Below, in pieces: positions 403 through 45,724 of a stretch of 64,000 bases of DNA. Within the stretch, counting starts at the first letter, position 1. Each line of letters begins with the position of its first letter. Made by a program: the position numbers and the translations under genes. This DNA comes from Centruroides vittatus (taxonomy: Eukaryota), in assembly GCF_030686945.1 (NCBI RefSeq), contig NW_027122708.1, forward strand, positions 5,930,248 to 5,994,247. Direction: 5' to 3'. The notes beneath the pieces are model-generated. The model was given only the letters and a program-made list of their open reading frames with translations. It was not told where the DNA came from and did not search any database.

Positions 403-2817
403 TGGAAAAAAGTATGATAACTTTTTTATTTTTCGACTCCGGTCCAAAAGTAGGGTATCGTTTAACTCGTCTCCGTCCCCTCAGTTCAGAAATATACTCA
501 AAGTCCCAAAATTCCATAGGTGGTAATCTATAGTATCCCCAATCATTTGTGTCCAGCTAAATTAAAGCGGTGTTATTAGCAGCCACCACAGCCAACATAA
601 TGCATTGCTGACTACCGTGCGAATCAAGTGGGAAAACGACAGATGACATAGGACAGACGAATAAAGTCGATCTATATTTACCCGACCTCAGCCAAAACAG
701 GCCTGAAAACGCAATAATTACTCGGCGTAGTTTCTCTATAAAGATGCAAATTAATTCATATTATAGTAATGTGTGTCCACTTTTCACTTTTACAATTAAA
801 TTTTGAATATTTATTGTACCGGTACAATTGAACTTTATTACACACTCACTAGAAAAAATAAAGATCATCAAACCTCCATACAAAACATTAATTATTTGAA
901 ATAAAATGAATAAATAAATAGTAGGCTGGATAATAATGATTACGAACTATATTTTATAAATACGTCAATAAAAATGAAGTTTTTCACGTAAAAAATATTT
1001 ACTACACCAATGGAAACTGGCGACGTATTCCACAAAAGAAATATCTTTATGGATATCTTTCCACCGATATTACCCCAAATCAAATGCACAGGGTAAATAC
1101 AATTGCACACGAGATACGTTCATAAAGTCGAAAGAATTAAAGGAGCTGTTCATAAATTACGTCCGCATTTTTCTTGAAATTTTACTCTCCCTTCCCCTCT
1201 TATGCCAGTTTGTCCGAGTTTCTGTAACCCTCCCTCTTCGGATGTCCGACAAAACTCGAACCCCCTTTAAACCTTTATCACTTTATAAATGACGATATTA
1301 TAAGTAGAAACAAAACGTAAAAAGAAATTCTGAAATAAATATAAAATGCATGAACTGTATAAAATTTAATGAAATAAACGGACGTCCACTGAAGATCGAT
1401 CCCTCTTCTCCCCTTGTCCGACTTTGTCTGACCTGTCCTAATCCCCAGTGTGGACGTCATGGACAGACCCAAAGGAATTACTGGCGAGTCGGCCATAAAG
1501 TACTAATTCTACTCGGCGCCCGCACAAAATGTTGATGACGTTTCAAACGAAATTCACGAAAGAAAAGAGGAAAGAGTTACTTTACATCGCAAAAAAAAAA
1601 AATTGTTTCTAAATTTATCCACGTGTATTAAAAAATGAAATGATAGAAATAAATGCCTACGGTAAGCAATGAAAGAAAAATATTTCGGATGAGAATGCAC
1701 CAGCCACATTTTAAGATGTTGATGCAATTTTACACTAACTTTCTTTAAAATAATATCCCCGAAGAGAACAGGCTGTTTCCTAGAAATAGTACAAGCCCAG
1801 GTAGTGTTGCCACCTTTACAAAATCGCTGACCCGGACGGTAGGTCAGGTTTGTTCAAACAGAAGTTCCTGATGCATGCGCAATGTCATTTTACAGTGCGA
1901 AGAATAACGTGCATGCCGGTTCTAAATCAGTTACAGTTAGGGACTAGGGACTTGCGTAGGAGTAACGTATGTAACCTAAATTAAGAAAGAAAGAACAGAT
2001 AATTTAGCTCCGCAGAAGACGTGTACGGACATACAAGCAAGAAATTATAAAAGAAAAAAAAAAGGTCGAGAGACAGGTTGCGAGTCACACGTCCGCGTAA
2101 ACAGAGTAACATGGCGGAATGGCAGATGAGTTTCAGTGAGTGTGAAGTCTTTCGCTGTTCAAATAGTGTAAATTTATAAAAAATATTTGCAAGAACTTTG
2201 TTTCATCGTAATTTCACAATTTCTACGAAATTCCCGGACAAAATTAATAGTTCACCCGGACAGTGAGTCAATTCCCGGACTGTCGTGTGAAAATCGTACG
2301 GGTGGTAACACTAAGCCCAGGACAACCCATGGGGAAGGAAGAGCAAGCTCTATCATTTCACCTCGTTCCAAAAAGAGGTTAATATCAAAACTTTCAATGG
2401 AAGCGAATCAGATATTAAGCTGATTAGAACAGACACTTTATTTGACAAAGTTTATAGGATTGTTACAAGGCGCCTGACTTTTGAATCAACCCGACAATTG
2501 GAAATCACTTTTCATCGATCATAGCCATAAAGAAGGAAGCAACGTCGATCACTTCCAAAATTTTCGGAACTCACTCCAACGAACTTATTATCACTGGTGT
2601 CGTCCGGTAATAATTTAAAAAAAGAAATTTATTGATTTTATGGAGTGTAATTTTCTATCACCAATGCATCATGATTATAAATTTCGTCAATTTATTTAAA
2701 AAAGTTATTTATGCCCTTATACATAATACTTGTTTTACTAAAAGTATAATGAAACGATGCCGTTTGATTTTCGATAACACTATGCGTCGCGTTTGTATAC
2801 AAGGTCTATAATACAAG

Positions 2818-3755: not shown

Positions 3756-4002
3756 GGTTAATGTTACCCTAGGTATCGAAGATAGCGGCTCGTCTCCGAT
3801 TCCATCAATCAGAAGATGGAAGAATGGGGACGCACGTTCTAACCTAACCTAACCTATTCTAATAAATTACCATAATTATTAGCAACAAAATTATTAGAAT
3901 AGGATAGGTTAGATTAGAACGTTCGTCCCCATTCTTCCCTGTCTTCTGATTGATGGAATCGGAGACGAGCCGCCATCTTCGATACCTAGGGTAACATTAA
4001 CC
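3756..4002. mobile_element. Palindromic MITE, family A copy 1. Termini ggttaatgttaccctagg / cctagggtaacattaacc. Arms of about 100 bp carry ggctcgtctc and ggggacgc motifs plus (CCTAA)3, which is (TTAGG)3 on the other strand.
   Basis: The inverted arms are reverse complements of each other. The central loop attctaataaattaccataattatt is shared with the copy at 10479-10712. Confidence 0.75.
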
Positions 4003-4268
4003 CAAAAACATATAATCATTTGCTTTTTGTCCAATATTTTAATAAATCTTCTGAACAGCCATTTGTAATTTGCTATAAATTTTAAGCTTAAATTCTGCCC
4101 CAATTTGCATTTGACATTAAATTTTAATTCACGATCTGTATCCTTCTTGTTAATATAAAATGGAAGTCAATGTAAAGCCCGTAGGATAACGCGCCACTGT
4201 TTAGTCCCATCCTCTAGATTCTATTTGAAGTCTTATTTATGGATTGGACGATTATGCTTGTTTTTTGG

Positions 4269-4570: not shown

Positions 4571-4909
4571 TTGATGGAAAATATGTCATCAGAGAGACTT
4601 GAAGCTTTCGTTAAAGATTATGTAAAGAGCAAGAAAACGTTGCAAAAAATAAAGAATGCACAAAAAATACTAGATAAAAACCACTACATTGCCAAGCAGA
4701 CAATAGAAAAAACTATGGAAGAGATTGAATCAAGTGCATTACATAATTTAGAAGTAATTTTTACAAGTAAACGAGAATTTCTGAAAAACTTGGAAAAGAA
4801 ATTTAAAAATTCTTCAAGTCCGAACGATGATACGAAAACATCTGAATCCGGAGATATTTCTCAAATAAATTTTGATATCGATAATCGTGAAATTGAAGGG
4901 CTGCCTTAG
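4571..4909 (+). CDS. Hypothetical 112-aa coiled-coil protein. The ORF starts 9 nt after a ttttcag acceptor, downstream of a GC-rich segment at 4310-4490 that may be a promoter or 5'UTR exon.
   Basis: ATG-initiated ORF with no transposable-element similarity, preceded by a polypyrimidine tract and AG. Composition is coiled-coil-like. No family was recognised. Confidence 0.3.
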   Translation: MMENMSSERLEAFVKDYVKSKKTLQKIKNAQKILDKNHYIAKQTIEKTMEEIESSALHNLEVIFTSKREFLKNLEKKFKNSSSPNDDTKTSESGDISQINFDIDNREIEGLP

Positions 4910-6073
4910 ACTTCAAAGCAGCAAAACCATTGGACGCTAAATATGATTTTGGTTAATTTAAATGCTTTTTACCTAAACCAGAAGATTTCACTTTGCTAAT
5001 TGTACAAAAAGAATTCGATATTGGAAAAGAATTTACTGTTTGTGCTAAAGGCGAAAAACATTAGTGTCCTCTGACATTTCGGCTTTTCGGATTAATGACA
5101 GACGAAAGTGGAATACGAAAGGTGGCTGAAATTGTTGATAAACAAGATGGTTCCTATATTTTCAACTTCCGCTTGGATAAATATTGCAAAATACTTCATA
5201 GAAATAACGCTCTTTGGTCGTCATATCAAAAATAGTCCTGTTGCTATAGGTATAAAAACAGACGAAAATAAGTTAACTAAAGACCGGCACTTATAGTATC
5301 TCGATGCTTTTGATCGCCGTTTAGATGTTTATCATCTCGAGACGGATAAATAAGTTTTAATTTTATAATTTCAGATATGCATCATTATATAGTTGAAACT
5401 TTTTAAAAAATATATTCTCTTGGTTAAAATGTTTAAATGAATAATTACAATTTTTGAATGTATTCCTTACTTAATCTTTGTATAAATTATTATTAATAAT
5501 GTTTAGTTTACGAAGTAGCATATAGTGATATTTCATGAAAGGTTTATTAGTGTTTATCATTTTATTAATAACATGTTACTTAGCAAATGTATCATAAAAA
5601 ATATCGTTTTAAAACTGTTAAATCGATATAAATTTTGTTCAGATTTGTTGATTAAAAGAAAATATTAATTCAACTTTATTCTCCACTTTTTCTATTTCAC
5701 TAATTTGAAGCTTTAATTCATTACATTTATAAACTTTAAATACAGTATTATAAGTTACGTCAGTCAATAATTTATAAATATAATTAGTACTATTAAACAT
5801 CTTTAACAATTTTTACATATTATAAACTAATTTATTTAAAAATTTCTAATTCTTGATTAAAAATTGTTATTTAAAAACTAAAAATATACAAATTTCAAAC
5901 ACGAAATCTGGCTAAATTCATATTTATTTTCTTTTTATAATGCAAAATTGTATTTTCATTTCGGTTTAGTTTGCTGTAATTTATTCGAAATAATATTTTG
6001 TTACCTTATTCTAGTTTTAGTTTATATGGCCGAATTATTTTTTGATGTTTTGTAAATTTCTTCTTATTAACTT

Positions 6074-6171
6074 GAATTGGAGCTCGGCCTGTCGAATTTC
6101 CTTTTATTTTGATTGGTCAAGTTCTTTCTGTTCTCTACTTTATGTTTTTTATTTTATTTTACTTTAAATAG
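6074..6171 (+). pseudogene. cytb: cytb C-terminal fragment (WIGARPVEFPFILIGQVLSVLYFMFFILFYFK-stop under the mitochondrial code), truncated upstream by an in-frame TAA at 6068
   Basis: The translation matches the conserved cytochrome b C-terminus WIGARPVE.P.I.IGQ. Upstream of 6068 there is no cytb-like sequence. Confidence 0.6.
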
Positions 6172-6234
6172 TTATTTAGCTAATATAAGCTTTTGTTTTG
6201 AAAGCAAAGAATAGGAAGTATCTTAATAACTTTT
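6170..6234 (+). tRNA. trnS2: Mitochondrial-type tRNA-Ser(UCN). It has a 7-bp acceptor stem agttatt/aataact and a TGA anticodon in ttttgaaag.
   Basis: Cloverleaf elements located by eye. The position between cytb and nad1 matches arthropod mitochondrial gene order. Confidence 0.5.
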
Positions 6235-7183
6235 CTTAAAAGAGTACTTAATAAAGAATAAGTGAATAATAAAAATAGTCTTTACAGACAAAACAATTAG
6301 CACATAATTTAAGGCTAGAGGAAGGTAGCTTTTTCAGGCTAGATTTATTAACTTATCATATCGAAAACGAGGATATCTCCCACGAACTCATAAGAAAAGA
6401 ATAGAAAATATTAATACTTTTAAGGAGATAAAAAGAGGACCAAAGAATAAAATTGCTGTTATTATTCTTATCAAGATAATATTTGCGTATTCAGCTATGA
6501 AAATAAGAGCAAAACCTACCCCTATATATTCAACGTTAAACCCAGAAACTAGTTCGGACTCTCCTTCTGTAAAATCAAAAGGAGTTCGGTTAGTTTCTGC
6601 TAAACAAGAAGAAAATCAAACTATTAATAGGGGGAGTATAAAAATTCCAATTGAACTTAATAATTGATAGTTATTAATTTCTTTTAAATTAAAAGAAGAA
6701 GTAATTATAAGAAGAGAAAATAAAATTAAAGCAAAGCTCACTTCATAAGAAATAGTTTGAGCTACTCCTCGATAAGCCCCTAAAATGGCGTATTTAGAAT
6801 TGGAGGACCATCCAGCCACTAAAATCGAGTAGACTCTTACTCTTGAACAAGATAAAAAAAAAATAAAACCCCCCATTTTATATCAATAAAATAATATAGA
6901 GAGGGGTATAACATCCATAAAATCAAAGCTATAGAAAGACCAAAAATAGGAGAAAACAAAAAAGGATAAAGATTATATGTTTCCAATCTTGATAGCTCCT
7001 TAATAAATAATTTAATAGCATCCGAAAAGGGCTGAAATAATCCTAAAATCCCTACTTTATTAGGGCCTTTACGAATTTGAATATAACCTAACATTTTACG
7101 TTCTAACAAAGTAATAAATGCAACTCTTACTAAAATTATAATTAAAATTAATAAATAAGATAAAAATCAAAAAAAAAATTATC
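6223..7183 (-). pseudogene. nad1: NADH dehydrogenase subunit 1 (nad1), mitochondria-derived, with a frameshift in a T10/A10 homopolymer at 6863-6872
   Basis: Six-frame ORFs 6837-7109 ([31 protein letters not shown]) and 6616-6876 ([32 protein letters not shown]) are ND1 segments in different frames. TGA is used as Trp. The stop TAA is at 6223. Confidence 0.8.
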
Positions 7184-7186
7184 AAA

Positions 7187-7256
7187 GAGAGATTCTATTT
7201 ATGGAGCTTAAATCCATCGCATATATTTTGCTACATTGAATAAAACCTTTTCTCTC
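7187..7256 (-). tRNA. trnL: Mitochondrial-type tRNA-Leu. The anticodon hairpin atgga-tttaagc-tccat reads TAA. Its 5' and 3' ends are uncertain.
   Basis: It lies between nad1 and rrnL as in arthropod mitochondrial genomes. The cloverleaf was only partly resolvable by eye. Confidence 0.35.
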
Positions 7257-8372
7257 ATTAGAACTTTTCTAAACGAAGGGTCCTTTCGTACTACTTCGTT
7301 TCAATTTTTCTCTAGATAGAAACCAACCTGGCTTACACCGGTTTGAACTCAGATCATGGAAACTTTTATAAGTCGAACAGACTTCCTATTATTGCTCTTG
7401 AGCAATAGAGGTAATTTAATCCAACATCGAGGTCACAAACATGTTTGTCAATTTGAGCTTTCAAAACATATTACGCTGTTATCCCTAAAGTAACTTATTT
7501 AAATTTCAAAAATTTTGGGTATTAAAATAATACTATCTTTAATTATCTAAAAGTGTTTTTCTTTCTGCCGCCCCAGCAAAACATATTCTTAATTTACTAA
7601 ATTTTCTTATGTAAAGTTTTATAGGGTGTTCTTGTCTAAAAGAGACATTTTAGCCTTCTTACTAAAAAGTGAAGTTTAAAATCAATAGTTAAGAAAGAAA
7701 TTTTCTAGTTTACCCTTTCATTCCAGTCTTAAATTACAAGACTAATTATTATGCTACCTTTGCACAGTCAAAATACCGCGGCCATTTATTTATACATCGA
7801 GCAGGGCTCATTTTTAATCATTTCAAAAAAATATGTTTTTGGTAAACAGACCAAAAATTTTAGACGAGTTACTTAACTTTTAATTGCTTTCTTAATTATA
7901 GATTAATTTTCTACTTATTTTAACATTATTACTATCATTAAATTATTCCATGGAAACTTTAATTAATTATTAGTTTATAAAACTAAAAATAACTTAATGA
8001 TAAAATTGAAGACAATCTTATTCCTCTAATAACAAATAATTATTTTTTAAACTTACATCTAATAAAGCTTGTCCTTTATTAGATAAAAATTTTCCAATCT
8101 TTGATGCTTATCTTAAAGAACCAGATATCAAATTAGGCGTTTAGCTTTTTACTTCAATAAATCAATTTACAATTACTTTAACACGTAAAAAATATTAATT
8201 TATAGCTCATAACTTTTCGGGAAAATTAAATCCTTTAATTAATTATTAAACCCTGATACAAAAGGTACGATATTCTCCTTTTTATATATTAAAAATACCC
8301 TTACAGTTAAGTTTTCTTCAATTTCAAACTATTACTAAAAAATGACTCCCTTCTTAATAATTTTCTAAAATA
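7257..8372 (-). rRNA. rrnL: Mitochondrial large-subunit (16S) rRNA, NUMT copy
   Basis: The 3'-domain motifs ccggtttgaactcagatcatg (7336-7356) and acgctgttatccctaaagtaa (7468-7488) are present as reverse complement. The 12S 3' end at 8441 fixes the upper bound. At about 1.1 kb it is shorter than a typical insect 16S. Confidence 0.75.
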
Positions 8373-8440
8373 AAATAAACAAGATTCCAAAAAGGATCTT
8401 TTTAATGTAAATAAAAAACTTAACTAAAGCTTAATCTTGC
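8373..8440 (-). tRNA. trnV: Mitochondrial-type tRNA-Val, approximate, with the anticodon in tttacat
   Basis: It lies between rrnL and rrnS. The reverse complement contains caagattaagctttagttaagtttt...tttacatt. Confidence 0.35.
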
Positions 8441-9245
8441 TTCCAGGAACATCTTCCGATATTCCTACTATGTTACGACTTTTCTCTTATTAAAAGAGAG
8501 TGACGGGCGATATGTACATATTTTAGAGCTAGTTCAATTTAACAAATTATTACAAAAATACTTTCAAATCCTCTTTCATTTACCTTTTAATAATAAAATC
8601 CATAAATATATTTTTATATTGTAACCCATCTATACTTAAACATAAGCTGAACCTTGATCTGATATTAAAAATAAAATTACATTTAATAATAACTATAAAG
8701 TATTATTACCACAACGATATACAAACCACCAATCTAAGTAAGATATGTCGTGTATTATCGATTATAAGACAGGTTCCTCTAATAAGATTAAAACACCGCC
8801 AAAATTTTTAAGTTTTAAGCCATCTAATACTACCTGAATTTTATATTTTTTTATAACAGGGTATCTAATCCTGGTTTCTCATAAAATTTTCAAAGACCCC
8901 TAAAAAAGAAGTTTTAAATATAAAAATTCTACCTTTAACTCTTCAATCCTTCTTAAAAATATTCTTCCCCCCAAAAACTTAGCCCTACTTGATTTTATAG
9001 TATAACCGCAGCCGCTGGCACTATTTTTGCTAAATCTAAAAGAATAACTAAAACTTTTTAATAAGAAATTAATATTAAAACCTAAAAATTTCTATTTAAA
9101 ATACTAATATAAATTTATTTTCTTAAAGAAGGACTTTTAGCCAAAATTAAACCAGGACTAATAAAATGTAGAGTATATTATCTTTACTTCTCTTCTTAAA
9201 TCTTCAATAAAAAAAACGCGCCACAATGAACTTGAAAACAAAATT
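8441..9245 (-). rRNA. rrnS: Mitochondrial small-subunit (12S) rRNA, NUMT copy
   Basis: The 3' end gtgacgggcgatatgtacat / aagtcgtaacatagtaggaatatcggaag is present as reverse complement at 8443-8510. The internal motifs gggtatctaatcc (8860) and accgcagccgctggcac (9005) are also present. Confidence 0.75.
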
Positions 9246-9542
9246 TTATAAACCAAATTCCATTTTAACTTTCTTCATCCATCCTCTGGATGATGTATAT
9301 ATACTCCAGATAGGCATTTCAGAACGGAAAACCGAATAGCCCCCCGGGGGGCCTTATTCATATAGTTTTTCTGCAATGTATTGTCATTTTAACAATATTG
9401 TAGTCTCGTGATACACATTAACCTCTATTCTCGTGGCGTGGATTATTTTAGAAATCTTTTATCTCCCTTACGGAATTTTTCTAGCCTATCTCCTTAATTA
9501 ATGAGAGCGTGCATGGCCTTAGGGAACTCGCACCATACTCTA

Positions 9543-10036
9543 ACAGTAATCCTGCAACAAAAGCATGTATTTGAAGTTACAGCATATGAAATGGATTCTA
9601 CCAAACCACCTCTACGTGTTCAGGTTAATTTCACCCATGTCATGTGATTAAACCGCGAGCGCTGCTTTTTTTTTTCCGGAGATAGTTACCTTTATTCTGC
9701 GACGTAATAAAAGTGGAGTTTCAAGAACAACCTCCAACATTAAATTTTGTCAGCGTTTAGGTAAAACACCTACGGAGACTTTAAAATTGCTAAGAAAGGT
9801 GTACGGTGATTCTACCATGGCGAAGTCGAAATGTTGGAGGTTGTTCTTGAAACTCCACTTTTATTACGTCGCAGAACAAAGGTAACTATCTCCGGGGGAA
9901 AAAAACAGCAGCGCTCGCGGTTTAATCACATGACATGGGTGAAATTAACCTGAACACGTAGAGGTGGTTTGGTAGAATCCATTTCATACGCTGTAACTTC
10001 AAATACATGCTTTTGTTGTCATGGATTACTGCAGTC
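9543..10036. mobile_element. Palindromic rearranged mariner derivative. Inverted arms of about 200 bp flank an 80-bp core that encodes a mariner transposase helix-turn-helix piece (RLGKTPTETLKLLRKVYGDSTMAKSKCW).
   Basis: The arms at 9543-9745 and 9825-10036 are reverse complements. The core translation matches the mariner N-terminal LGKNT...YGDS...KS region. Confidence 0.6.
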
Positions 10037-10478
10037 CCCGAACTTTTGGATCGTATCACGTATAAGTTTCTTGGTTGCATAAAGAATATCGGGCGACTCT
10101 CAAAAGTTTCCTGCACGTCGGTGATCTAAGTTTGATTTAAATTTAAAATTTATTATAATAATTGTCACAAAGAAAATACGAATGAGTAGTTTTAGTGTGA
10201 TGGAAGAATATATTCTTGTCTATTTTAAAGTCAAATGTTTCTTAAAATTTATCAAAAAAATACGAGAAAATTCAGTAGATGAATATACAATTCGTAAAAA
10301 TTATTGATAAACTTTATGTATTGTAAGAATATAACTCAGTTATATCGAGTATTTTCAGTAAAGGGTCGTCAGATTTTATAAAAATTGTATACGTAGATAA
10401 AAAAAATTAATACAGAATTCTTATAATTTTTATTTATTCATCTAAAATTATCAATTGAATTTCGTTGTTTCAATTTAA

Positions 10479-10712
10479 GGTTAATGTTACCTATGGTGTC
10501 AAAATGGTGGCTCGTCTGTGATTCAAGGAAACAGAAGGAAAAAAAAAACAGTGGGGACGCCCTAACCTATTCTAATAAATTACCATAATTATTACCAACC
10601 AAATTATTAGAATAGGTTAGGTTAGGTTAGAACGTGCGTCCCCACTGTTTTCTTTCTTGTTTCCTTGAATCAGAGACGAGCCGCCATTTTGACACCATAG
10701 TTAACATTAACC
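10479..10712. mobile_element. Palindromic MITE, family A copy 2, carrying (TTAGG)3
   Basis: The termini, loop and arm motifs match the copy at 3756-4002. ataggttaggttaggttagaacg is visible. Confidence 0.75.
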
Positions 10713-11568
10713 CAATTTAAAATGATTCACAAGCAATACTATTAAACGAAACTCATAATGCCTGCTCTCAAACAAAATTATTTTGCGATATTTATAAAAA
10801 ATTAATTGAAAATTTGAAAATTAAACTTTTGTTCAATATAAAATTTGTCTTTATTTAGAGCGAAAATTAAGTGTTAAATCGAATGCAGTTAATGGAAAAG
10901 TATTCAACCTTGTACTGTACATGGTCATTGCCATCGTAGAAACGAAAAAATTTAAATGCTGTCCAGCAAATTTACATTCTGGATAGCTATATAATAAAAT
11001 AATTATAAAAACAATTCCATTTTATAATAGACCTAATACAAAATTTATATCAGTTTCACACAAAAGAAGTGTCGATTTTGCGAGATAAAATTGCTTCCTT
11101 ATATTGAAGCAATTTTATCTTACTAGGCTGATCTTTCTAATTATTTAACGTCAGGCAACGTAATGTTTTCAATGTTTCGGATAGTTATATTTAACAATAA
11201 GAATGCATTACTCTATTATGCTCAACATTAGAGTTTTAAATCACTGTTTCTGAATAATTCCACATAGGCCAATTCTTAAAGCAGACAGATTTATAGAAAC
11301 AAATGGAATAAGGTTTACAGAAAAGTGAAGTTTCTGTAAAAAAAATGATGTCATTGCAATATTTCTTTGGCATATGTAGAGATTAGATCATATGTTTTTT
11401 AAAATTTATGGCCTGTGTCACAAAAGTTTCTTTTTTTTACTTTCCCGGCTACTATAACAGAGGAAAAGTATGGCGATCGGTAAAAAAATGACCACCCAAG
11501 GTTTTTTGGATCAGGAGACTTGAAAGAAAAAAAATAGAATAGTTAAGATTTTGTGAAATTACTTAATA

Positions 11569-18495: not shown

Positions 18496-19951
18496 TATGA
18501 GGCGTGTCCGGGAAGTAAGTACCGTTTTGGAAAAACTCGCATAAAAAATCTTTTTTCAAAACAAAATTTATTTTTACATGAAAGAGCATGTCGGAAACTA
18601 TCTTTCTACACAGTTACCACCATTGTTCAGACATTTGTCATATCGGGAAACCAATTTGTCTATACCCTCTTCAAAGAAAGATGCCACCAGTGAAGACAGC
18701 CACTGCTGAACATTGGTTGTTGCGTCGTCATCGCTGGCAAAGCGCCTCCCTCCAAAATCACGCTTCAAGTTCAAGAACAAATGGTAGTCTGCAGGTGTGA
18801 GGTCGGGGCTGTATGGCGGGTGATCAAACTGCTCCCAACCGAATTGTTGAATCATGTTTTGGGTGACACCAGCAGTATGGGGACGTGCGTTGTCATGAAG
18901 CAACACAATGCCTTTACTGGGACTTCCACGCCTTTTGTTTTGAATTGCATGGCGAGGTTTTCGCAATGTTTCACAGTATCGTTCTGCATTGATGGTTTCA
19001 CCTCTGGGAAGGAACTCAACAAGCAGAATGCCCTGTCTGTCCCAGAATACAGTATGGGAAATGTATGGATTAGTAGAAAATGTAGATGGATGAAATGGAT
19101 TAGTGGGAAATGTAGGTTTAGTAGCCGGTAAGTCATAAGACAGGTACGACATAATTAGGACGATGGGGGACGGCTGTCCCAGAATACAGTGCACATGATT
19201 TTTCGTGCTGACAATGTTGTTTTGAATTTGTGTTTTGTGGGGAACCATGAGTGCCTCCACTCCATTGACTGTTGTTTTGATTCTGGAGTGACATGACAAA
19301 CCCAAGTTTCATCACCGGTAACAATTTTGTTTAGGAAATCATTACCCTCTTCACTGTATCGGATAAGAAATGCCAAAGCACTTCCAAGTCGCTTCGTTCT
19401 GTGGACATCCGTAAGCATTTTGGAGACTCAATGGGAACACAATTTACGATAATTTAAGTGATTTGTGACAATCTCATGCAAAACAGTTTTTGAAATTTGT
19501 GGAAACTCATCACAAAGCAATCTTATTGTGAACCGTCTGTTTTCACGAATTTTCTCATTCACTTTTGCAACCAAACCATCATTGACAACAGAAGGCCGCC
19601 CACTCCATGCTTCGTCATGAACATTGTCCATCATTGAATTGTCAAACCCACTTTCTCACCATTCCATCACTCATTACATTTTCACCATAAATCTCTACAA
19701 GTTGACGATGAATTTCAACTGGCTTAACATTCTTTGCATTCAAAAACCATATTACAGAACGCACTTCACAGTCGACGGGATCGGCAATCGTCTTAAATAT
19801 TTTGAACGCTCACTAACATGTGAAAAAACAACACAATCTTTCATGGCGTCACTGGACTGACAATCAACCAGAAACACATATGCGCAGGCGCTGAACTGCG
19901 ATACTACTGCTGCGGTGGCAGTAGAACAAAACGATACTTACTTTCTGGACA
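18496..19951 (-). mobile_element. Mariner-like element of about 1.46 kb with 26-bp terminal inverted repeats tatgaggc(g/a)tgtcc(g/a)g(g/a)aagtaagta
   Basis: The terminal inverted repeats at 18496-18521 and 19926-19951 are reverse complements. The internal transposase ORFs carry mariner signatures. Confidence 0.8.
18598..19634 (-). pseudogene. Mariner transposase, frameshifted across three ORFs. N-terminal helix-turn-helix SGRPSVVNDGLVAKVNEKIRENRRFTIRLL; DD34D catalytic-domain motifs HDNARPHTA and HPPYSPDLTPADYHLF.
   Basis: Six-frame ORFs 19428-19634, 19155-19418 and 18598-19305. Signature mariner motifs are present. Several frameshifts make it non-functional. Confidence 0.8.
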
Positions 19952-33532: not shown

Positions 33533-36500
33533 TTAGTTTGTTTTGTTTTTATAAATGTCGATTATTTTACAAAAATAGTTATAAATTTTATATAAGTCTT
33601 TTTTACCCATTTTGTTGAAGTTTTTTAACAATTCTATTAGCGAATTGCATTTATAAGTTCGAGTTATGTCATAGTGTTCACGAATATCATTTAATTTTGG
33701 ACATTTTAATATTAAATGATAAGGTGTTGAATCATCGGAGTTACATAAGAAACATTTTGTTGATAAGCTTATGTAAGTGTTGTTAACATACAGCGAATTT
33801 TTATTTAAACGAAGTTGTGCTATAAAGCGTTTTACATTCAAGTTTACCGAATACAACATATATGATTGAACTGATGGTATTTTAAATATATCTAAGTACC
33901 ACGGATGATATTTACTGCTATGTAATGAGAACTGATCTTTGTTTATGGATTGTGCCATAGCTGAGTTTAAAAGTAGTGAGTAGCCTGTTTTCCAATCTTG
34001 AATGTTATCTTGAAATAGTAGTTCTGATACTCCAAAAGAGTTGAAGATAGTTTTTAATTTGTTATGCCATAGCTGTTTATTTTTTTGAAGTTTACTTTGC
34101 TTGATGTTTTCATGATATAGAGCAATCAAATTGTTGTCACTATTGAATTTGAGTCTGTAATAAAATTTAATGATTCGTTTTAATATGAACGGGAAAGACC
34201 ATATACGATTGGTTTCATGACGTAGTGCATATCCGGGTATTGTCCGTTCTAACTGAAATAATCTGCGTAGATAGTAAATATGGAATCGTTCTAATTTGTA
34301 GAGATAATCCAAGCTCCAAATGGGACTGGCGTAGAATATCATTGGATTAATAATCGAATTGTAAAGTTTCATGTGTATTCTTAAGTCAGAAGTTTTCAAT
34401 CTGCTGCATAAAAACAAAAGATTATCGATTGCTTGATTGACTTTATTGTTAAGTTTAGAAATGTGCGATTTAAATGTTAAGTTCCAGTCAAAATTAATTC
34501 CTAGGTAATTTATCTCATTGACAGTTTGTAGCAGGATATTTTCATGATAAATTTTTGTTTCGTTAACAGATATTTTACTGTTGTTCCGAAAAATAATTAT
34601 TTTAGTTTTACTTGGATTAACTGCTAAATATTTAGACTTAAAATGCGAATTTAATTGATTGATTTTCCTTTGGAGAGAAATTTTTGTCGGTGCTACCACA
34701 ACCAAGTCATCAGCAAAGAGAATATAATGAAATGCTTTATTGCCTATGAGTATACCATCGTTTACTTCAGAAAAAAGATGATCTATATCTTTCAAATAAA
34801 AGTTAAATAAATGTGGAGATAATGGATCTCCTTGAAGAATACCACGTGAATGCGTTAATGGTGGAAGAATGTTTTTACCGTGCTTGATCTTTATTTTATA
34901 ATTTTGAAATAATATTGATATTGTTCCTGTAAATTGAGAACTAGCACCACTCTCCTTAAGTTTTTGTTGTAAAAAAGGTACATATACTGAATCGAATGCC
35001 TTTTTAATATCTATAAAAGCAGCATACACTTTTCTATGTTTTTTTACGAGATATATTTGAATAATCATTAGCAAAGTAAATATCGCAAATTCGGTGCCTT
35101 TATTTTTTGTATAAGCAAACTGAAATTCTGCTTCTAACTCGTTGATTTTGATCCAATTTTGAAATTTTTTTGCAAGTATCGATGTAAAACATTTTCTAAG
35201 TGTAGATAACAAAGCTATAGGTCTATAGTTTTCTGGAGCCATCTGGTCTCCCTTTTTATAGATCATCGTCATGATTATGGAATTCCAAGATTCAGGATAG
35301 GACAATGTGCTGTACATAGCATTGAATATTTTCAATAATTTTATTTTAGATTCCGTTGGTAGCATTTTTAAGAATTTGGTTGGTATGTTATCATCCCCTG
35401 GGGTAGTATTGTTTTTTGTTTTTTGAATTACTTCGTCGAGTTCATTCATAGTCAAGTCAGCGTTTAAATAATCATCATAATAATTAATATTTCTTTCCAT
35501 TGGAACTTTTAAATTTTTTATAATGAAGCTTTGATAAAATTTCTTCCAAGTTTCGAATCTTATACAAATGTTAATATCTCCTAGATTAGCTTTTGGTCGA
35601 AATTTTCGGATAGTATTCCAAAATATTTTGCTATTATTACTATTATTTATTAAATTTGATTCAATTCTACAAAAGTAGTTTTTCTTTTTCGTCTTAATTA
35701 AGTTATTGTAGATTCGTTTGGAGTTTTTGTAATTAATCAAATTTTCTTTATTAGGATTTTGCCTGTAAATTTTTAAATCTTGTTGCTTTCGCCGTTTTTC
35801 TTTGTAACAATCTGAATCATACCAGATTTTTTTATTTTTATTTTGCGCGTATTTGTTATCCTTGTTTGATATTATATAATCATTCATGATATTCATCATT
35901 ATTTTGTATACCTCTTCACAGTTATTATTAGTTACTTCTAGCATATTTTTAAACCGATTTCCAATTTCGGACTCATAACTAGCCAATTTGTACTTTATCT
36001 TGAAGTTGTTGTTATATATATAATCCGAATTCTCAAAAGGAAATAAACGGAATTTTGCTATTGTAGGAAAATGATCTGAAATATCAAAATTCGTAGTCTG
36101 AAATTCTACACAACAATCTAAGAATAATTCAGAGCATATTGTGAAATCTATGGTCGAAGCACCCGTATTGGTCAAGCAAGTATGTTCAGCTGGAATATCC
36201 TGTTGAATTCTGCCGTTAAGAAGAAACAATCTGTGTTCTGTTAGCAACTCGATAAAGTTTTTACCCAATCTGTTGGTTTGTTTATCTTTCGAAAGACGTT
36301 TATTAGATATATTGAAATTGGCACCTTTATATTTTGAATCTATTAACTCACCAATCCTTGCATTAAAATCTCCCACTACCAAAATGAGCGGAGAAATATG
36401 ACTCCAACTTTCTAATGTTTTAAACATATTTTTTAAAGTACTTAGATCATCAGGCAGAATATAAGCAATTAATAATGTTATTAAATTATTCGTTTTATTT

Positions 36501-36814
36501 ACCAAAGTAGGCTTCTGTAATGAGATAAGAAGTAGCATATAATTGTTGAATTTTTTTATGTCAATTATTTTACCAAGGTTCTTTTTTATAAGGATACATA
36601 TACCTCCACTTGGACGGCCTGGACCTGTAGGTTTTTGTGCTTGAATCGATTCCACTATAAAGTTATTAAAAAATTTTGTTTTATAATACAAATTCGAAGT
36701 AATCCAAGTTTCAGTAATTGCTAAAATATCCGGATCGTATTTAACACAAAAATTATTTATTAGTGACGTTTTATTTTTTATTCCTTGGCCATTCCAGTTA
36801 GCAATGGAAACCAT
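33533..36814 (-). CDS. LINE ORF2 polyprotein of 1093 aa. N-terminal apurinic/apyrimidinic endonuclease (DILAITETW), reverse transcriptase (FADDLVVVA box) and C-terminal Cys motif CFLCNSDDSTPYHLILKC.
   Basis: Uninterrupted ORF starting with ATG. The domain order and motifs are those of LINE ORF2. Confidence 0.85.
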   Translation of the reverse strand: MVSIANWNGQGIKNKTSLINNFCVKYDPDILAITETWITSNLYYKTKFFNNFIVESIQAQKPTGPGRPSGGICILIKKNLGKIIDIKKFNNYMLLLISLQKPTLVNKTNNLITLLIAYILPDDLSTLKNMFKTLESWSHISPLILVVGDFNARIGELIDSKYKGANFNISNKRLSKDKQTNRLGKNFIELLTEHRLFLLNGRIQQDIPAEHTCLTNTGASTIDFTICSELFLDCCVEFQTTNFDISDHFPTIAKFRLFPFENSDYIYNNNFKIKYKLASYESEIGNRFKNMLEVTNNNCEEVYKIMMNIMNDYIISNKDNKYAQNKNKKIWYDSDCYKEKRRKQQDLKIYRQNPNKENLINYKNSKRIYNNLIKTKKKNYFCRIESNLINNSNNSKIFWNTIRKFRPKANLGDINICIRFETWKKFYQSFIIKNLKVPMERNINYYDDYLNADLTMNELDEVIQKTKNNTTPGDDNIPTKFLKMLPTESKIKLLKIFNAMYSTLSYPESWNSIIMTMIYKKGDQMAPENYRPIALLSTLRKCFTSILAKKFQNWIKINELEAEFQFAYTKNKGTEFAIFTLLMIIQIYLVKKHRKVYAAFIDIKKAFDSVYVPFLQQKLKESGASSQFTGTISILFQNYKIKIKHGKNILPPLTHSRGILQGDPLSPHLFNFYLKDIDHLFSEVNDGILIGNKAFHYILFADDLVVVAPTKISLQRKINQLNSHFKSKYLAVNPSKTKIIIFRNNSKISVNETKIYHENILLQTVNEINYLGINFDWNLTFKSHISKLNNKVNQAIDNLLFLCSRLKTSDLRIHMKLYNSIINPMIFYASPIWSLDYLYKLERFHIYYLRRLFQLERTIPGYALRHETNRIWSFPFILKRIIKFYYRLKFNSDNNLIALYHENIKQSKLQKNKQLWHNKLKTIFNSFGVSELLFQDNIQDWKTGYSLLLNSAMAQSINKDQFSLHSSKYHPWYLDIFKIPSVQSYMLYSVNLNVKRFIAQLRLNKNSLYVNNTYISLSTKCFLCNSDDSTPYHLILKCPKLNDIREHYDITRTYKCNSLIELLKNFNKMGKKDLYKIYNYFCKIIDIYKNKTN

Positions 36815-36868
36815 TTGATTATTCTTTATGACTTTGTTATGTTGCGTATATTTTTGCTTAACATGATA

Positions 36869-37843
36869 TCAACTGTCTGTATTTATTTGATTACTATAAG
36901 GACGAAAATTATTTACATAAACCAATTTGCTCAATTTTAGGCTATATGTTATTTTTTCTTGGTTAATCGTTAATATATCATTACGGAGTTTAACTTGGTC
37001 TTTTTGTTTTCGTAATTCATGAAGTATTGGGAGTAAATTTTTCTTTCTTATCCTTGAGTTTTTAGTCAAATCTGGGGATATTTGCATATCTTCCCATTCT
37101 TCTAATGCGTTTTTTTGTTGTTTCTTTTGAATAAAGGTATAGAAAAATTTATCACGAAGTTGCTTATTGCTGAATGTTATTCTTACTGTTGTATTAGGTT
37201 TCTTAGTTATTAAGTTTGTTTCTGTTATCTCAGTTTGGGCTATATCGTGAATGTTTAGTACATTAGTCATAAAGTTATATACTTCTAACGTAGATATGGA
37301 TTTCGAGCTTGGATATTTGTATACAATTATTTTTTTATAATTATAATCATTAATTAAAGAGTCTATTTTAAATTGCGTTAGTTCATTTTCACTTTTTTGA
37401 TTTTCTAGTTGTTGTTTTATATTTTTAATTTCTTCCTCCATATATATCTGTCTTTCCTTAGTCTCACGTATATCTTGACGTATTCGTTCTACGTCTTCTT
37501 TTATATAGACCATTTGTTCTAACAGTTTATCATTTGAAGCATTTATTAAATCTGATATTTTAGTCCATAGAAGTGCAGTTGTAGTGTCAAGTTGACTTGC
37601 TGGATTAGTAAGAAGGCTTGAATTAATATTAGGTGACTCACCTGTTGAGCCTAATGAATTCTGCTGACCAGGTTCCATATTTTGATTCGAGAATTCTTTT
37701 GTTCCTTCTTGTGAATCACTTTTCGGTTGTGTTCCGTAATCCGTAATGAGTTTGGAGCTTGAAGTGCTTGGTTGAGCTTGTTTGTTCTCTGTCCTCGTTC
37801 TGGTCAGTGGAGGTCTTCCACGCTTGACTGGAGATCTTTGCAT
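36869..37843 (-). CDS. LINE ORF1 protein of about 324 aa from the first ATG. Basic N-terminus, long coiled-coil (IKEDVERIRQDIRETKERQIYMEEEIKNIKQQLENQKSE) and a C-terminal putative RNA-binding region. There are no CCHC zinc knuckles, so it is of the L1-like type.
   Basis: The six-frame ORF 36869-37885 uses a non-ATG start. The first ATG is at 37841-37843. Confidence 0.7.
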   Translation of the reverse strand: MQRSPVKRGRPPLTRTRTENKQAQPSTSSSKLITDYGTQPKSDSQEGTKEFSNQNMEPGQQNSLGSTGESPNINSSLLTNPASQLDTTTALLWTKISDLINASNDKLLEQMVYIKEDVERIRQDIRETKERQIYMEEEIKNIKQQLENQKSENELTQFKIDSLINDYNYKKIIVYKYPSSKSISTLEVYNFMTNVLNIHDIAQTEITETNLITKKPNTTVRITFSNKQLRDKFFYTFIQKKQQKNALEEWEDMQISPDLTKNSRIRKKNLLPILHELRKQKDQVKLRNDILTINQEKITYSLKLSKLVYVNNFRPYSNQINTDS

Positions 37844-38524
37844 ATTATTATTTTTTTGTATTATTGCTTTTTCCTTTACCTTCACTTAGTTAGTGTTAGT
37901 TTAAACTTGTTTAATAATAAGTTAATCAAATAAACAGTAATTCACCACTTCGCTGCACAAATGAAAGGTTCACAGAAAAAGTCACTCGCAGCGCCCGACA
38001 AACTATATTTTTATATATAGATATATGGATAAAATATATTTTCTTTCTCAAAAAAATATTTTATTTAAATGTTAAATTACATATTGTGTTGATTTAACTT
38101 TTTCACTTTCTTTATAAATATATAGTAAAGGAATTTTATATTTAAAGTAACTTTTAAAAAAAAGACACAAATATAAGAAATGCTAAAAATTTAATCATGT
38201 TTTTTGGAATAAATATAATTTATTTAACTAATGCTATTGTTGAATTTATGAAAGAAAGTAAATGAGAACTGTTAAGCTGATGACTCCACAGTTTATTTTA
38301 ACAGATATTTTATTTTTAAATCTATCCATTGAGATTTAAGAGATAAGTTATTTAAGATTTGTATAAATATCATATAGATATTAATACCCTTTGTTAAAAT
38401 TAATTTATTCCATTTACATTCTTTATCCCTTCTGCAATTATTTTAGTTTTGATATCTCAAAAAATTATACATTTAACATATTTATGTAGTAATTTCTCTA
38501 AAATATTAAAATAATAATAAATGA

Positions 38525-42262: not shown

Positions 42263-42812
42263 TTATCTTTTCTTCTTATTTACTTCTATACTTAACTTTA
42301 ATAACAAGCAGTACATGTTTACATCTTTAATTTCCACCGTACAACCTTGAACAGCATGATTATTGTTATCTTCACAATGATATTGAATAATTCCACCAAG
42401 ATAATCCTGCCAAGTTGTGGAATCAACACTAGCGACCAAAGGGCCATGAAATGCCATTAATTTTAGCATTTCTTCTTCTGATCCTTTTAAATCTTCACAG
42501 GTATAATTAAATTTTAATTCTATTCCTTTTTTTGGTCTTATGGCTTTACAGTTTGTCTCTTTGTCAGTTAAAGGATATTGTTTTTCAGTTAAAATTTTCA
42601 CTTTATTCTCATACATCCAGTCTAAGACCTCAAAAGTATCTCCACCATCATAACCACAGTTTGTTCCAGTTGCACAATCTATTACTTGCTGCACATTCAA
42701 TTCTACAAGTTCACCTGTCTTTAAAGCATTCATACTTTCTAATGTTTCTACAGTACTAAACGTCCAACATGCACCACATTCCTTCTGACTTTTCACTGGA
42801 GTAACAATTCCA
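42263..42812 (-). pseudogene. Papain-family (C1A, cathepsin-L-like) cysteine-protease fragment. It covers the mature-domain N-terminal roughly 170 aa (PGIVTPVKSQKECGACWTFS...DCATGTNCGYDGG...NHAV) with no propeptide and no intron, and is frameshifted at its 3' end.
   Basis: The conserved Q19 and C25 region QKECGACWTFS, the GCxGG-like block and the His region are recognisable. The copia RT fragment abuts it in-frame upstream. Confidence 0.6.
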
Positions 42813-43443
42813 GGTTTCCTCCTGGCTTTATATATTCATTTTCACTCTTCTTTCTGTATATCCACTTCACATCAATTACCCTTTTGTCTTTGGGAGGCTT
42901 GCTTACAAGTGTCCATGTATTGCTTATCACAAGACTCTCCATCTCAGAATTCATTGCTGCTTTCCATTTCTTTGAATCATCAAATGTCATTGCCTCCTGA
43001 AAATTTTCTGGAACCGTAGCATCACAGTAATTTACACTTATACAGTAATAACCAAATTCTTCATCAAAATGGAGTGGATGTTTAATTAGTCTTCCTGATC
43101 TTTTTCCTTTCTTCTTTTCTTCATCATCTTTTATCTCATCATTACTATTTTCTTCATGTGTTTTGTCCTTTTCCAAGTCTTTTGTCATATCTTTTTCTTT
43201 CTGATTTGTATTAGTGGAATCTTCTTCTTCGTTCTCCTTTGTTTGGTCTGAATCCTTTTGTCTTTCTTCCTTATCTTCATTCTTTTCCTCTTCCTCATTT
43301 TTGAATCCACACAAAGTTACATCTTCTTCTATTATGTCACAGTGTCTAGCCATTATAACTCTGCTATTCACCAATACTCTATATCTGGTGTCTGTATATC
43401 CAAGTAAAATTCCAACTTCCATTTTCTTGTCCCACTTCCATTT

Positions 43444-44136
43444 TCATTTTTCTTCTGGAATTCTTATAAATACTTTACTTCCATACATTTTTAGATTTTT
43501 TACTGATGGCTTCCTTTTGAAAAATATTTCATATGGCATTTTTCTCTCAATGGTGTTAGTTAAGGTTCTGTTTTTAAGATATGCAGCTGTTTTAATTACT
43601 TCTGGCCAAAATCTTCTTTCATTCTTTGCTTCTGATAAGAGACATCTCCCCATATCCATTAATGATCAATTGTATCTTTCTGCAGTTCCATTTAGTTCAT
43701 GCACATATGCTGGACAAGGTTTTATTATTATTCCTTTTTCTTTTGCAAACTTAAAAACTCTTGCATTCATATACTCCTTCCCATTGTCACATCGCAGTTC
43801 CTTTATCATCTTTCCAGACAAGTTTTGTATTTCATTAATATACTGCACTAAGCATTCATATACCTCATCTTTTGTCTGGATACAATAAATTTTAACTATT
43901 TTGTTATAGTCATCTATGAAGTTTAAGAAATATTTTTCTCCAAGATTTCCTGTAGTTTGATGTGGTTCATTTAAATCTGTATGTACAATCTCTAATATGT
44001 CTTCTGCTCTTCTCCTGTTGTTATGAAATGGTAAGTTATGCATTTTGTTTTCAATACATGTAGCACAATTTAAATATTCTGGTTCAATCTCACTGGGTAG
44101 TCTGTCTAATGATTCATTTTTACACATTATTTCCAA
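43444..44136 (-). pseudogene. Copia integrase core (HTDLNEPHQT...FIDDYNKIV...LRCDNGKEYMN...PCPAYVHELNGTAERYN and its continuation), frameshifted
   Basis: The rve-domain DDE pattern H..D / D / E is present in ORFs 43666-44136 and 43444-43659. Confidence 0.75.
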
Positions 44137-44542
44137 GTTGTTAAAATTGATATGTCCAGTTGTTTTCTACGTAGTTTTTCTTTTATAGTCATATTGCTTT
44201 TACTCATGTTTGCTTGTGATTTTTTTTCATTGATATAACTTTTCATTTTATATAGTTTATCCTCTTTATTGCAACAGCTATCAGCCTTCCATATGGGTTG
44301 TATATTTTGGAGAATTTCCCTCTTGAAACAACTGAATGTTTGTCTGTGATTTTTGAATAACTTAACAAATTTGCTTTCATATCTTTTACAAAAAAAAAAA
44401 AAAAAACATTTTCCAATGTCACCTCAGAATTTTGTCCACAAACTGGGAAACAAGTTTTAATATTACCAACTTTTGTAGCTTCTAATATTCTTCCATCATC
44501 AATTTTTACAATATAATAAGAAATGCTTACTGGAACAAAAAA

Positions 44543-44687
44543 ATCAGAAATTAAATCTATTACACGCCTTTAAAGTATCCAGCATACTGTTAAATTTTCA
44601 TAAGAACGTTTTCGATCACTTTTAGAGATCTTAAATTTAACAGTATGCTGGATACTTTAAAGGCGTGTAATAGATTTAATTTCTGAT
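44543..44687. mobile_element. Hairpin MITE of about 145 bp inserted in the copia gag-integrase region, with 55-bp inverted arms
   Basis: atcagaaattaaatctattacacgcctttaaagtatccagcatactgttaaattt ... is the reverse complement of the right arm. Confidence 0.65.
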
Positions 44688-44977
44688 TTTTAATCAATTT
44701 TTACTTTTACTGATTCCTTCAATGTCTCACAGGTTTCAAAATACTCATCAGTGTTAATAATATGGTCTGTGTAACCACTACCAAGTAACCATTCTATTTC
44801 ATCTTTCCCTGGCTTTTTGTTTTTACTTGTTTTATAAGTATTGTTTGCAATGGTAACCTGAAAACTATTTCCTTGATATTCATGTATGCATTGATGATAA
44901 TTTCCTTATCCTCTCTGAAAGTTTCTGGCATTGAACAATCCATGTCCTCGATAAACAGAAAAACCACGACCTCCACC

Positions 44978-45724
44978 TCAGTTTTCAACTTCAGAACGAC
45001 AATTTCTTTTTAAATAGCCAGGTTTACCACAGCTGTAACATTTCAACTTATTCTGAAATGATGACCTGGCTTCAGCTCGAAATACATTTGATCTATCATT
45101 TGACTCTTCATTAGAATTTTCCTCGGCACTTTTTAACTTTATTTTGCTTTTCAGATAGTCAACAGTTCTCTCCTTTTCTGGTAAAACATCTATTAAACCA
45201 CCAATATGACTATAATTCTGTGGTAGCAATTTTAACATGTAGTTTAATTTTTCTTGCTCTGATATTATAGCACCTGCCTGCTTTAATTCATTCACAGCTT
45301 TTTCAAATGCGTTGAAGAATAAGCATACATCTGAATAATTTTTAAATTTGATACTTTCGAGGTTATGTTGGCACACAATTTGCAGAGCTGTTGACTTTTT
45401 CAGATACATTTCATCAAACTTTTGGATAATTTCATAAGCTGTATCGAGTTTGCTTATGTATTCTAGCTGTTTGTTAGTTATTCCACTGTAGATATAGTTA
45501 GTTGCCTGTATATCTCATTTGTCCCATTCATCATCGTCAGATTTAATTTTAGCCCTCATTACCACATCTTTACACTCTTTGAACTGTAGAAACTTGAACA
45601 TACATAATTTCCAGTTACTATAGTCTGCTCCATCAAATATTGGAATATTAATATCACTGTTTTTCACTGCCATTACCACGTGTGCTCTTTCTTTGTTTTC
45701 TTGAACTAATTTAACCTCTTTCAC
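44978..45724 (-). pseudogene. Copia gag in two ORFs. The N-terminal UBN2-like region reads IPIFDGADYSNWKLCMFKFL. The C-terminal zinc knuckle reads CYSCGKPGYLKRNC.
   Basis: Motifs recognised in ORFs 45515-45724 and 44978-45409. Confidence 0.75.

Follow-up and report, generated by a model that had tools for sequence, protein, structure and literature searches.

The stretch of DNA analysed here, a 64-kb window without any N characters, contains a single colinear segment of mitochondrial sequence that extends from ~5980/6013 to ~9150-9290 and is 3.2-3.3 kb in size. This block is described here as a candidate nuclear copy of mitochondrial DNA (NUMT). Its genes follow one another in the order cytb 3′ end (+), trnS2(UGA) (+), nad1 (−), trnL(UAA) (−), rrnL (−), trnV (−) and rrnS (−), with the following positions in the window:

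5980-6169, plus strand: 3′ fragment of cytb, comprising its last ~50-63 codons, with a TAG stop at 6167-6169
6170-6232, plus strand: trnS2, anticodon UGA, a 63-nt cloverleaf (ARAGORN -mt) whose 7-bp acceptor stem is fully paired
6248-7179, minus strand: nad1 pseudogene, 932 nt, starting with ATT (7179-7177) and originally ending with TAA (6250-6248)
7180-7240, minus strand: trnL, anticodon UAA, 61 nt (ARAGORN -mt), with two T.T mismatches in the acceptor stem
7241-8378, minus strand: rrnL (16S rRNA), ~1138 nt, its ends fixed by the adjoining tRNAs
8379-8439, minus strand: trnV, anticodon UAC, 61 nt (ARAGORN -mt), with perfect acceptor and anticodon stems
8440-9220, minus strand: rrnS (12S rRNA), its 3′ end adjoining trnV and its 5′ end approximate (~9150-9290)

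The mitochondrial homology of the block is evident from NAD1, from the large subunit (LSU) rRNA, from the mitochondrial tRNAs, from small subunit (SSU) rRNA motifs and from a Pfam match to cytb. The tRNA genes were detected by ARAGORN in its metazoan-mitochondrial mode, the default bacterial mode giving no tRNA at all. A first-pass annotation, made by reading the sequence, had already described a colinear mitochondrial block with this gene content, order and strand assignment; ARAGORN, Rfam, the SSU sites, NAD1 and the Pfam cytb match bear it out, and the list is correct well past chance. The span given for the block, 6060-9250, holds as regards its size (~3.2 kb). Its left edge, however, lies at least 47 nt farther left, and its right edge can be placed only within ~9150-9290.

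For comparison, the expected order and strands were those of the ancestral chelicerate arrangement. The block is colinear with this native mitochondrial order in both gene order and strands, indicating one transfer event and not a mosaic. Both the tRNAs (61-63 nt) and the rRNAs (~1138 and 710-850 nt) are short, as would be expected of an arachnid. The order trnL-16S-trnV-12S agrees with that published for a buthid scorpion, Mesobuthus martensii, in which trnQ and trnL flank the two rRNA genes, 12S and 16S, with trnV separating these and the control region coming after 12S (PMC7748737). The trnL(UAA) gene is the sole trnL between nad1 and rrnL, which is consistent with the account of the Centruroides vittatus mitogenome, where a tRNA-Leu is translocated and inverted (PMC6703829). 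A second trnL(CUN) was considered between trnL(UAA) and rrnL; ARAGORN found none there at a lax threshold, and the space is taken by the sarcin-ricin loop. Published accounts conflict on which Centruroides tRNA has been translocated, an earlier comparison naming trnQ (PMC2231378), not tRNA-Leu (PMC6703829), as the moved gene.

The block holds ~3.3 kb out of the ~14.6 kb of a mitochondrial genome and starts in mid-cytb. No second copy of it occurs within the 64-kb window. Searches with NAD1 homologues revealed no further nad1 pieces in the window outside the block, and no further cox1 or cytb pieces were found in the window with Drosophila sequences as queries, the latter being a weak negative.

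The nad1 gene carries the clearest signs of decay. It was read under the invertebrate mitochondrial code, in three-frame translation, alongside the NAD1 references of C. vittatus, C. hentzi and C. limpidus, which have 305-306 residues and N- and C-termini in common. Three lesions break the frame:

7169-7178, minus strand: lesion 1, a T10 run after the start-codon A at 7179, where MFFWF requires A + T9 + GA (+1 nt)
6854-6863, minus strand (A10 on the plus strand): lesion 2, a T10 run where the WGVLFFLSC of the homologues requires T8 (+2 nt)
6260-6270, minus strand: lesion 3, an insertion of 11 nt, or of 8 nt (ATTCACTT, 6267-6260), not in a homopolymer

Lesion 1 throws the ATT start out of frame. 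Lesion 2 can alternatively be read as a loss of 1 nt, if the original gene carried T11 and one extra Phe. Through lesion 3 the original ILY-TAA ending is no longer in frame, and the open reading frame (ORF) gains 12 codons; the 3′ part of nad1 reads ...KTIFIIHLFFIKYSFKKSY in the nad1 frame and ...SLILY, then TAA, in the adjacent one. Removal of 1 + 2 + 11 nt restores a reading frame from ATT to TAA of 305 codons (306 if 8 nt instead of 11 are removed at lesion 3). Its end, KTIFILY*, is identical to that of C. vittatus, which places the original nad1 stop at 6250-6248. Neither the three-frame translation nor the repaired frame contains a stop codon made by substitution. A 15-nt spacer (6233-6247) is left between the repaired stop and trnS2; in insects, a binding site for a transcription-termination factor is known from this position.

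Only one of these lesions had been noticed in the first-pass annotation, as a 1-nt slip in a T10 homopolymer at 6863-6872. A frameshift in a T10 run does exist, but at 6854-6863 (A10 on the plus strand), 9 nt to the left, and since the WGVLFFLSC of the homologues requires T8, it is most simply a gain of 2 nt (or a loss of 1 nt from T11). To this are added the extra T at 7169-7178 and the 11 or 8 nt at ~6260-6270. The evidence of decay is thus stronger than had been proposed, with three frame-breaking insertions, one of them outside any homopolymer.

At the other end of trnS2, the block is truncated within cytb. The Pfam family Cytochrom_B_C matches 6013-6141, covering profile positions 59-102 of 102. 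A tblastn search with a Drosophila cytb gave an alignment reaching 6028 and, under sensitive settings, 5995 (ILLPY...), across an 8-residue gap. Under table 5 the cytb frame is open from 5980 and is preceded by an in-frame TAA at 5977-5979. A T-rich skew, of the coding-strand type, begins near 5900-5920. The left junction of the insert probably lies at 5980-6013, the similarity to cytb extending to 6013 (Pfam) and probably to 5995. Loss of cytb upstream of 6068 by an in-frame TAA, as first proposed, does not hold: the TAA at 6068-6070 is outside the cytb frame, whose codons there are TTA TTA ACT TGA, and the similarity continues to 6013. Three short database fragments (P0148-P0150) have FWCFV..LLTWIGARPVE in common with the cytb of the block. 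They were the only yield of a profile search with a 31-aa stretch that is translated alike under tables 5 and 11, and a word-indexed search of proteins, queried with the 63 translated cytb residues, returned no candidate.

The rRNA genes occupy most of the remaining sequence. In rrnL, Rfam LSU rRNA models match the minus strand at 7310-7642 (130.7 bits, E = 1e-38) and 7699-7859 (68 bits, E = 7e-18), and the sarcin-ricin motif AGTACGAAAGGACC is present at 7279-7292. The sites of the 16Sbr primer (7338-7359) and of the scorpion 16S forward primer (7746-7765) are both retained with 1 mismatch. Like the SSU sites described below, these LSU motifs are unique matches for which zero would be expected by chance. 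The rrnS gene went undetected by Rfam, even with E ≤ 1. It was recognised by conserved SSU sites that lie in the right order on the minus strand, 515F-like at 9003-9021, 12Sai-like at 8853-8877 and 12Sbi-like at 8496-8515. Each site is unique in the window, and 100 shuffles produced 0 chance matches. From the 515-type site (9003-9021) and the 784 bp annotated for 12S in M. martensii (PMC7748737), the 5′ end of rrnS would be expected near 9150-9220.

The right junction of the insert is approximate, between ~9150 and ~9290. A mitochondrial-like skew of C over G persists to ~9290, where the G+C content jumps from ~26% to 39-49%. The segment directly to the right of the block, 9291-9554 (39-49% G+C), may be either part of the control region or nuclear. 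A perfect 14-nt palindrome, GCCCCCCGGGGGGC, is present in it at 9339-9352, and a 6-bp hairpin lies at ~9283-9300. On the question of a trnQ or control region at this side, ARAGORN at a lax threshold gave noise to the right of rrnS. No mitochondrial protein domains were detected in the flanks over 4600-6200 and 9100-10900, a scan that covered only the plus-strand frames on the left.

The mitochondrial lineage from which the block derives was assessed through NAD1. The top match was C. vittatus (E = 1.4e-177), with 95% identity for the frame-merged query and 96.7% after frame repair, followed by C. hentzi (87%), C. limpidus (85%) and then other buthid scorpions; the host is accordingly a buthid, and the window can be assigned to the nuclear DNA of a Centruroides scorpion. 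Given 96.7% identity to C. vittatus and 85-87% to the two congeners, the source is placed in the C. vittatus lineage or in one very closely related to it. The repaired NAD1 differs from that of the C. vittatus mitogenome, which comes from an Arkansas population, at 10 of 305 residues, which argues that the block is not current mitochondrial DNA (mtDNA) if the host is C. vittatus. All these replacements are conservative, and most fall in variable columns. In a relative-rate test of low power, 5 derived changes were assigned to the lineage of the window, 4 to that of C. vittatus and 4 were ambiguous. Only 1 window-derived change (V to I) affects a NAD1 column conserved at ≥90% (P ~0.24, again with low power).

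A crude age can be derived from these figures. NAD1 of C. vittatus and C. limpidus differs at 45 of 305 residues, and the nucleotide divergence of their whole mitogenomes is 18.4% (PMC6703829). Scaling from the NAD1 replacements suggests a nucleotide divergence of ~4% between the block and C. vittatus mtDNA. With the rate applied to scorpion COI, ~1% per million years (PMC3702564), the insertion would be roughly a few million years old, provided that the host is C. vittatus, which the identity and the contiguity suggest.

In the assembled sequence, the block is contiguous with nuclear DNA on both sides. The U2 spliceosomal small nuclear RNA (snRNA) gene, ~3.5 kb to its left, is a clear nuclear marker, and transposable elements of several types are distributed over the window:

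2284-2461, minus strand: U2 spliceosomal snRNA (Rfam RF00004, 63 bits versus a gathering score of 46)
9555-10018: foldback repeat of 464 nt, with inverted arms at 9555-9741 and 9830-10018 that are 95-98% complementary
10479-10712: hairpin resembling a miniature inverted-repeat transposable element (MITE), with 55-nt terminal inverted repeats
18598-19305, minus strand: mariner-type transposase fragment with Transposase_1 and DDE_3 domains
33533-37885, minus strand: apparently intact non-LTR (long terminal repeat) retrotransposon of the long interspersed nuclear element (LINE) type, with ORF1 of 338 aa and ORF2 of 1093 aa (APE and reverse transcriptase, RT)
within 42263-45409, minus strand: copia-type gag and integrase ORFs, adjoining a Peptidase_C1 ORF

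Another RT ORF is also present in the window. The description of the block as embedded between nuclear-type repeats is accurate for its right side, with the foldback (9555-10018) and the MITE-like hairpin (10479-10712), but the immediate left flank consists only of anonymous AT-rich DNA. No target-site duplication was seen at the insert; none is expected for NUMTs. The centre of the foldback encodes a fragment of Mos1-type HTH_48, and the repeat resembles a mariner-derived hairpin element. The MITE-like hairpin has a ~76% identical copy at 3756-4005, on the opposite side of the block.

Taking these data together, we consider it highly likely that the block is a NUMT, consisting of ~3.2-3.3 kb of Centruroides mtDNA captured in a nuclear chromosome. 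The truncated cytb, the untranslatable nad1 and the nuclear DNA on both sides support the earlier view of a decaying nuclear copy. The block is distinct from the organelle copy in having only the last 50-63 codons of cytb, three insertions in nad1 and 10 of 305 differences in NAD1. As a functional mitochondrial segment it is deficient in every respect considered, with a nad1 frame broken three times, a truncated cytb, nuclear flanks and an incomplete gene set. A linear fragment of Centruroides mtDNA, ~3.2-3.3 kb long and extending from inside cytb to about the 5′ end of rrnS, would have been captured into a nuclear chromosome, presumably through end-joining repair of a double-strand break, which is the established route of NUMT capture in general. 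After capture, it would have evolved as non-functional nuclear DNA, nad1 gaining its three frame-breaking insertions (+1, +2 and +8/+11 nt). With its tRNA cloverleaves and rRNA core motifs still intact, the copy would now be a molecular fossil without function.

Several observations weigh against this interpretation. In one respect the evidence of decay is weaker than had been proposed: two of the three lesions lie in 10-nt homopolymers, where long-read assembly can be error-prone. The C. vittatus assembly was built from PacBio continuous long reads (CLR) with Flye and Ratatosk (PMC11304958), so these two lesions could be consensus errors. The longest runs in the intact LINE ORFs of the window are 7 nt and hence provide no gauge of how accurately 10-nt runs are resolved. 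If the indels are set aside, the block is very clean, with no stop codons and with conservative replacements at variable or tolerant sites, and such cleanliness would likewise be expected of very recent mtDNA from a species not yet sampled. Finally, the joins to nuclear DNA are those of the assembled sequence, and both junctions are approximate.

These points bear on three other explanations. If organelle mtDNA reads had been misjoined into a nuclear contig, the nad1 breaks would be long-read consensus errors; the two lesions in 10-nt homopolymers, the likely CLR-based source assembly, the lack of stop codons and the intact tRNAs and rRNA cores are consistent with such a chimera. We regard it as very improbable, however. 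The block is internal, with ~6 kb of window sequence to its left and ~55 kb to its right, and two independent false joins would be required; moreover, it starts in mid-cytb, lesion 3 (8 or 11 nt) lies outside homopolymers, 10 of the 305 NAD1 residues are not those of the C. vittatus mitogenome, and no adapter remnants were found at the junctions. A live mitochondrial segment on an organellar contig, with nad1 frame changes due to programmed frameshifting or to errors, has nothing in its favour beyond the good preservation of the genes, and its probability is negligible. The nuclear flanks, with the U2 snRNA, the LINE, copia and mariner ORFs and the MITEs, exclude a live organelle genome. In addition, only 3.3 kb of ~14.6 kb is present, cytb is truncated and no other mitochondrial genes were found in the 64 kb (again with Drosophila cox1 and cytb as queries).

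The third explanation differs from the preferred one in timing. The NUMT could be very young, in a host Centruroides species whose mitogenome is absent from databases, in which case the amino acid replacements would predate the transfer, leaving the indels, or the 8/11-nt insertion alone, as later events. The balance of derived changes (5 in the window, 4 in C. vittatus and 4 ambiguous), all of them conservative, is consistent with this scenario, as are a nad1 without stop codons and window-derived changes that avoid conserved columns, with one exception at ≥90% (V to I). On the other hand, the conservation test has little power (P ~0.24), and equal counts are also expected if the neutral nuclear rate is close to the constrained non-synonymous mitochondrial rate. 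The identity of 96.7% to C. vittatus, versus 85-87% to C. hentzi and C. limpidus, further argues for the C. vittatus lineage itself. We therefore judge a very young copy to be somewhat unlikely, although clearly the most credible of the three.

Our results characterise a genuine, well-preserved and ordinary NUMT in Centruroides, which raises no new biological question. Its practical consequences are more relevant. The nearly intact 16S and 12S primer sites mean that the copy could co-amplify in scorpion marker work, and a 3.3-kb pseudogene could pass for organelle sequence in mitogenome assembly, read mapping and 16S/12S studies. Compared with the mitogenome of its host, it would provide a date for a single insertion and a single estimate of the nuclear relative to the mitochondrial rate. 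A more specific proposal, which we find doubtful, is that the copy is a mitochondrial fossil of a few million years in the C. vittatus lineage in which the sites of the standard primers for 16S and 12S have stayed near-perfect. If this were true, it could co-amplify in PCR surveys and might add to the lack of 16S variation reported between distant C. vittatus populations (PMC3702564), and the ratio of mitochondrial to nuclear substitution rates in scorpions could be calibrated internally against it.

Two other elements of the window deserve mention. The nearest database relatives of the LINE at 33533-37885 are 29-35% identical, one of them from C. vittatus, and no relative of its ORF2 above 35% identity was found; the element may belong to a young, poorly catalogued family. 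The papain-family (Peptidase_C1) ORF at 42263-42796 lies directly beside the copia gag and integrase ORFs and may be a captured or interrupted fragment of a cysteine-protease gene.

The closest known counterpart of the block is the C. vittatus mitogenome itself (MF975702; PMC6703829), with which it shares the same genes in the same relative order, as far as the descriptions allow, together with a NAD1 of 305 codons that, after repair, has like N- and C-termini and 96.7% identity. It departs from that mitogenome in its three nad1 insertions, 10 replacements, truncated cytb and nuclear flanks. A full-text literature search combining scorpion and NUMT retrieved no paper describing NUMTs in scorpions. 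Compared with the animal NUMTs known from many arthropod and vertebrate genomes, the copy in the window has the same character: a colinear multi-gene fragment with an arbitrary breakpoint within a gene, placed in repeat-rich nuclear surroundings and bearing frame-breaking indels in a sequence that is otherwise largely preserved. It shows no difference in kind from them, and represents a specific, apparently undescribed scorpion example.

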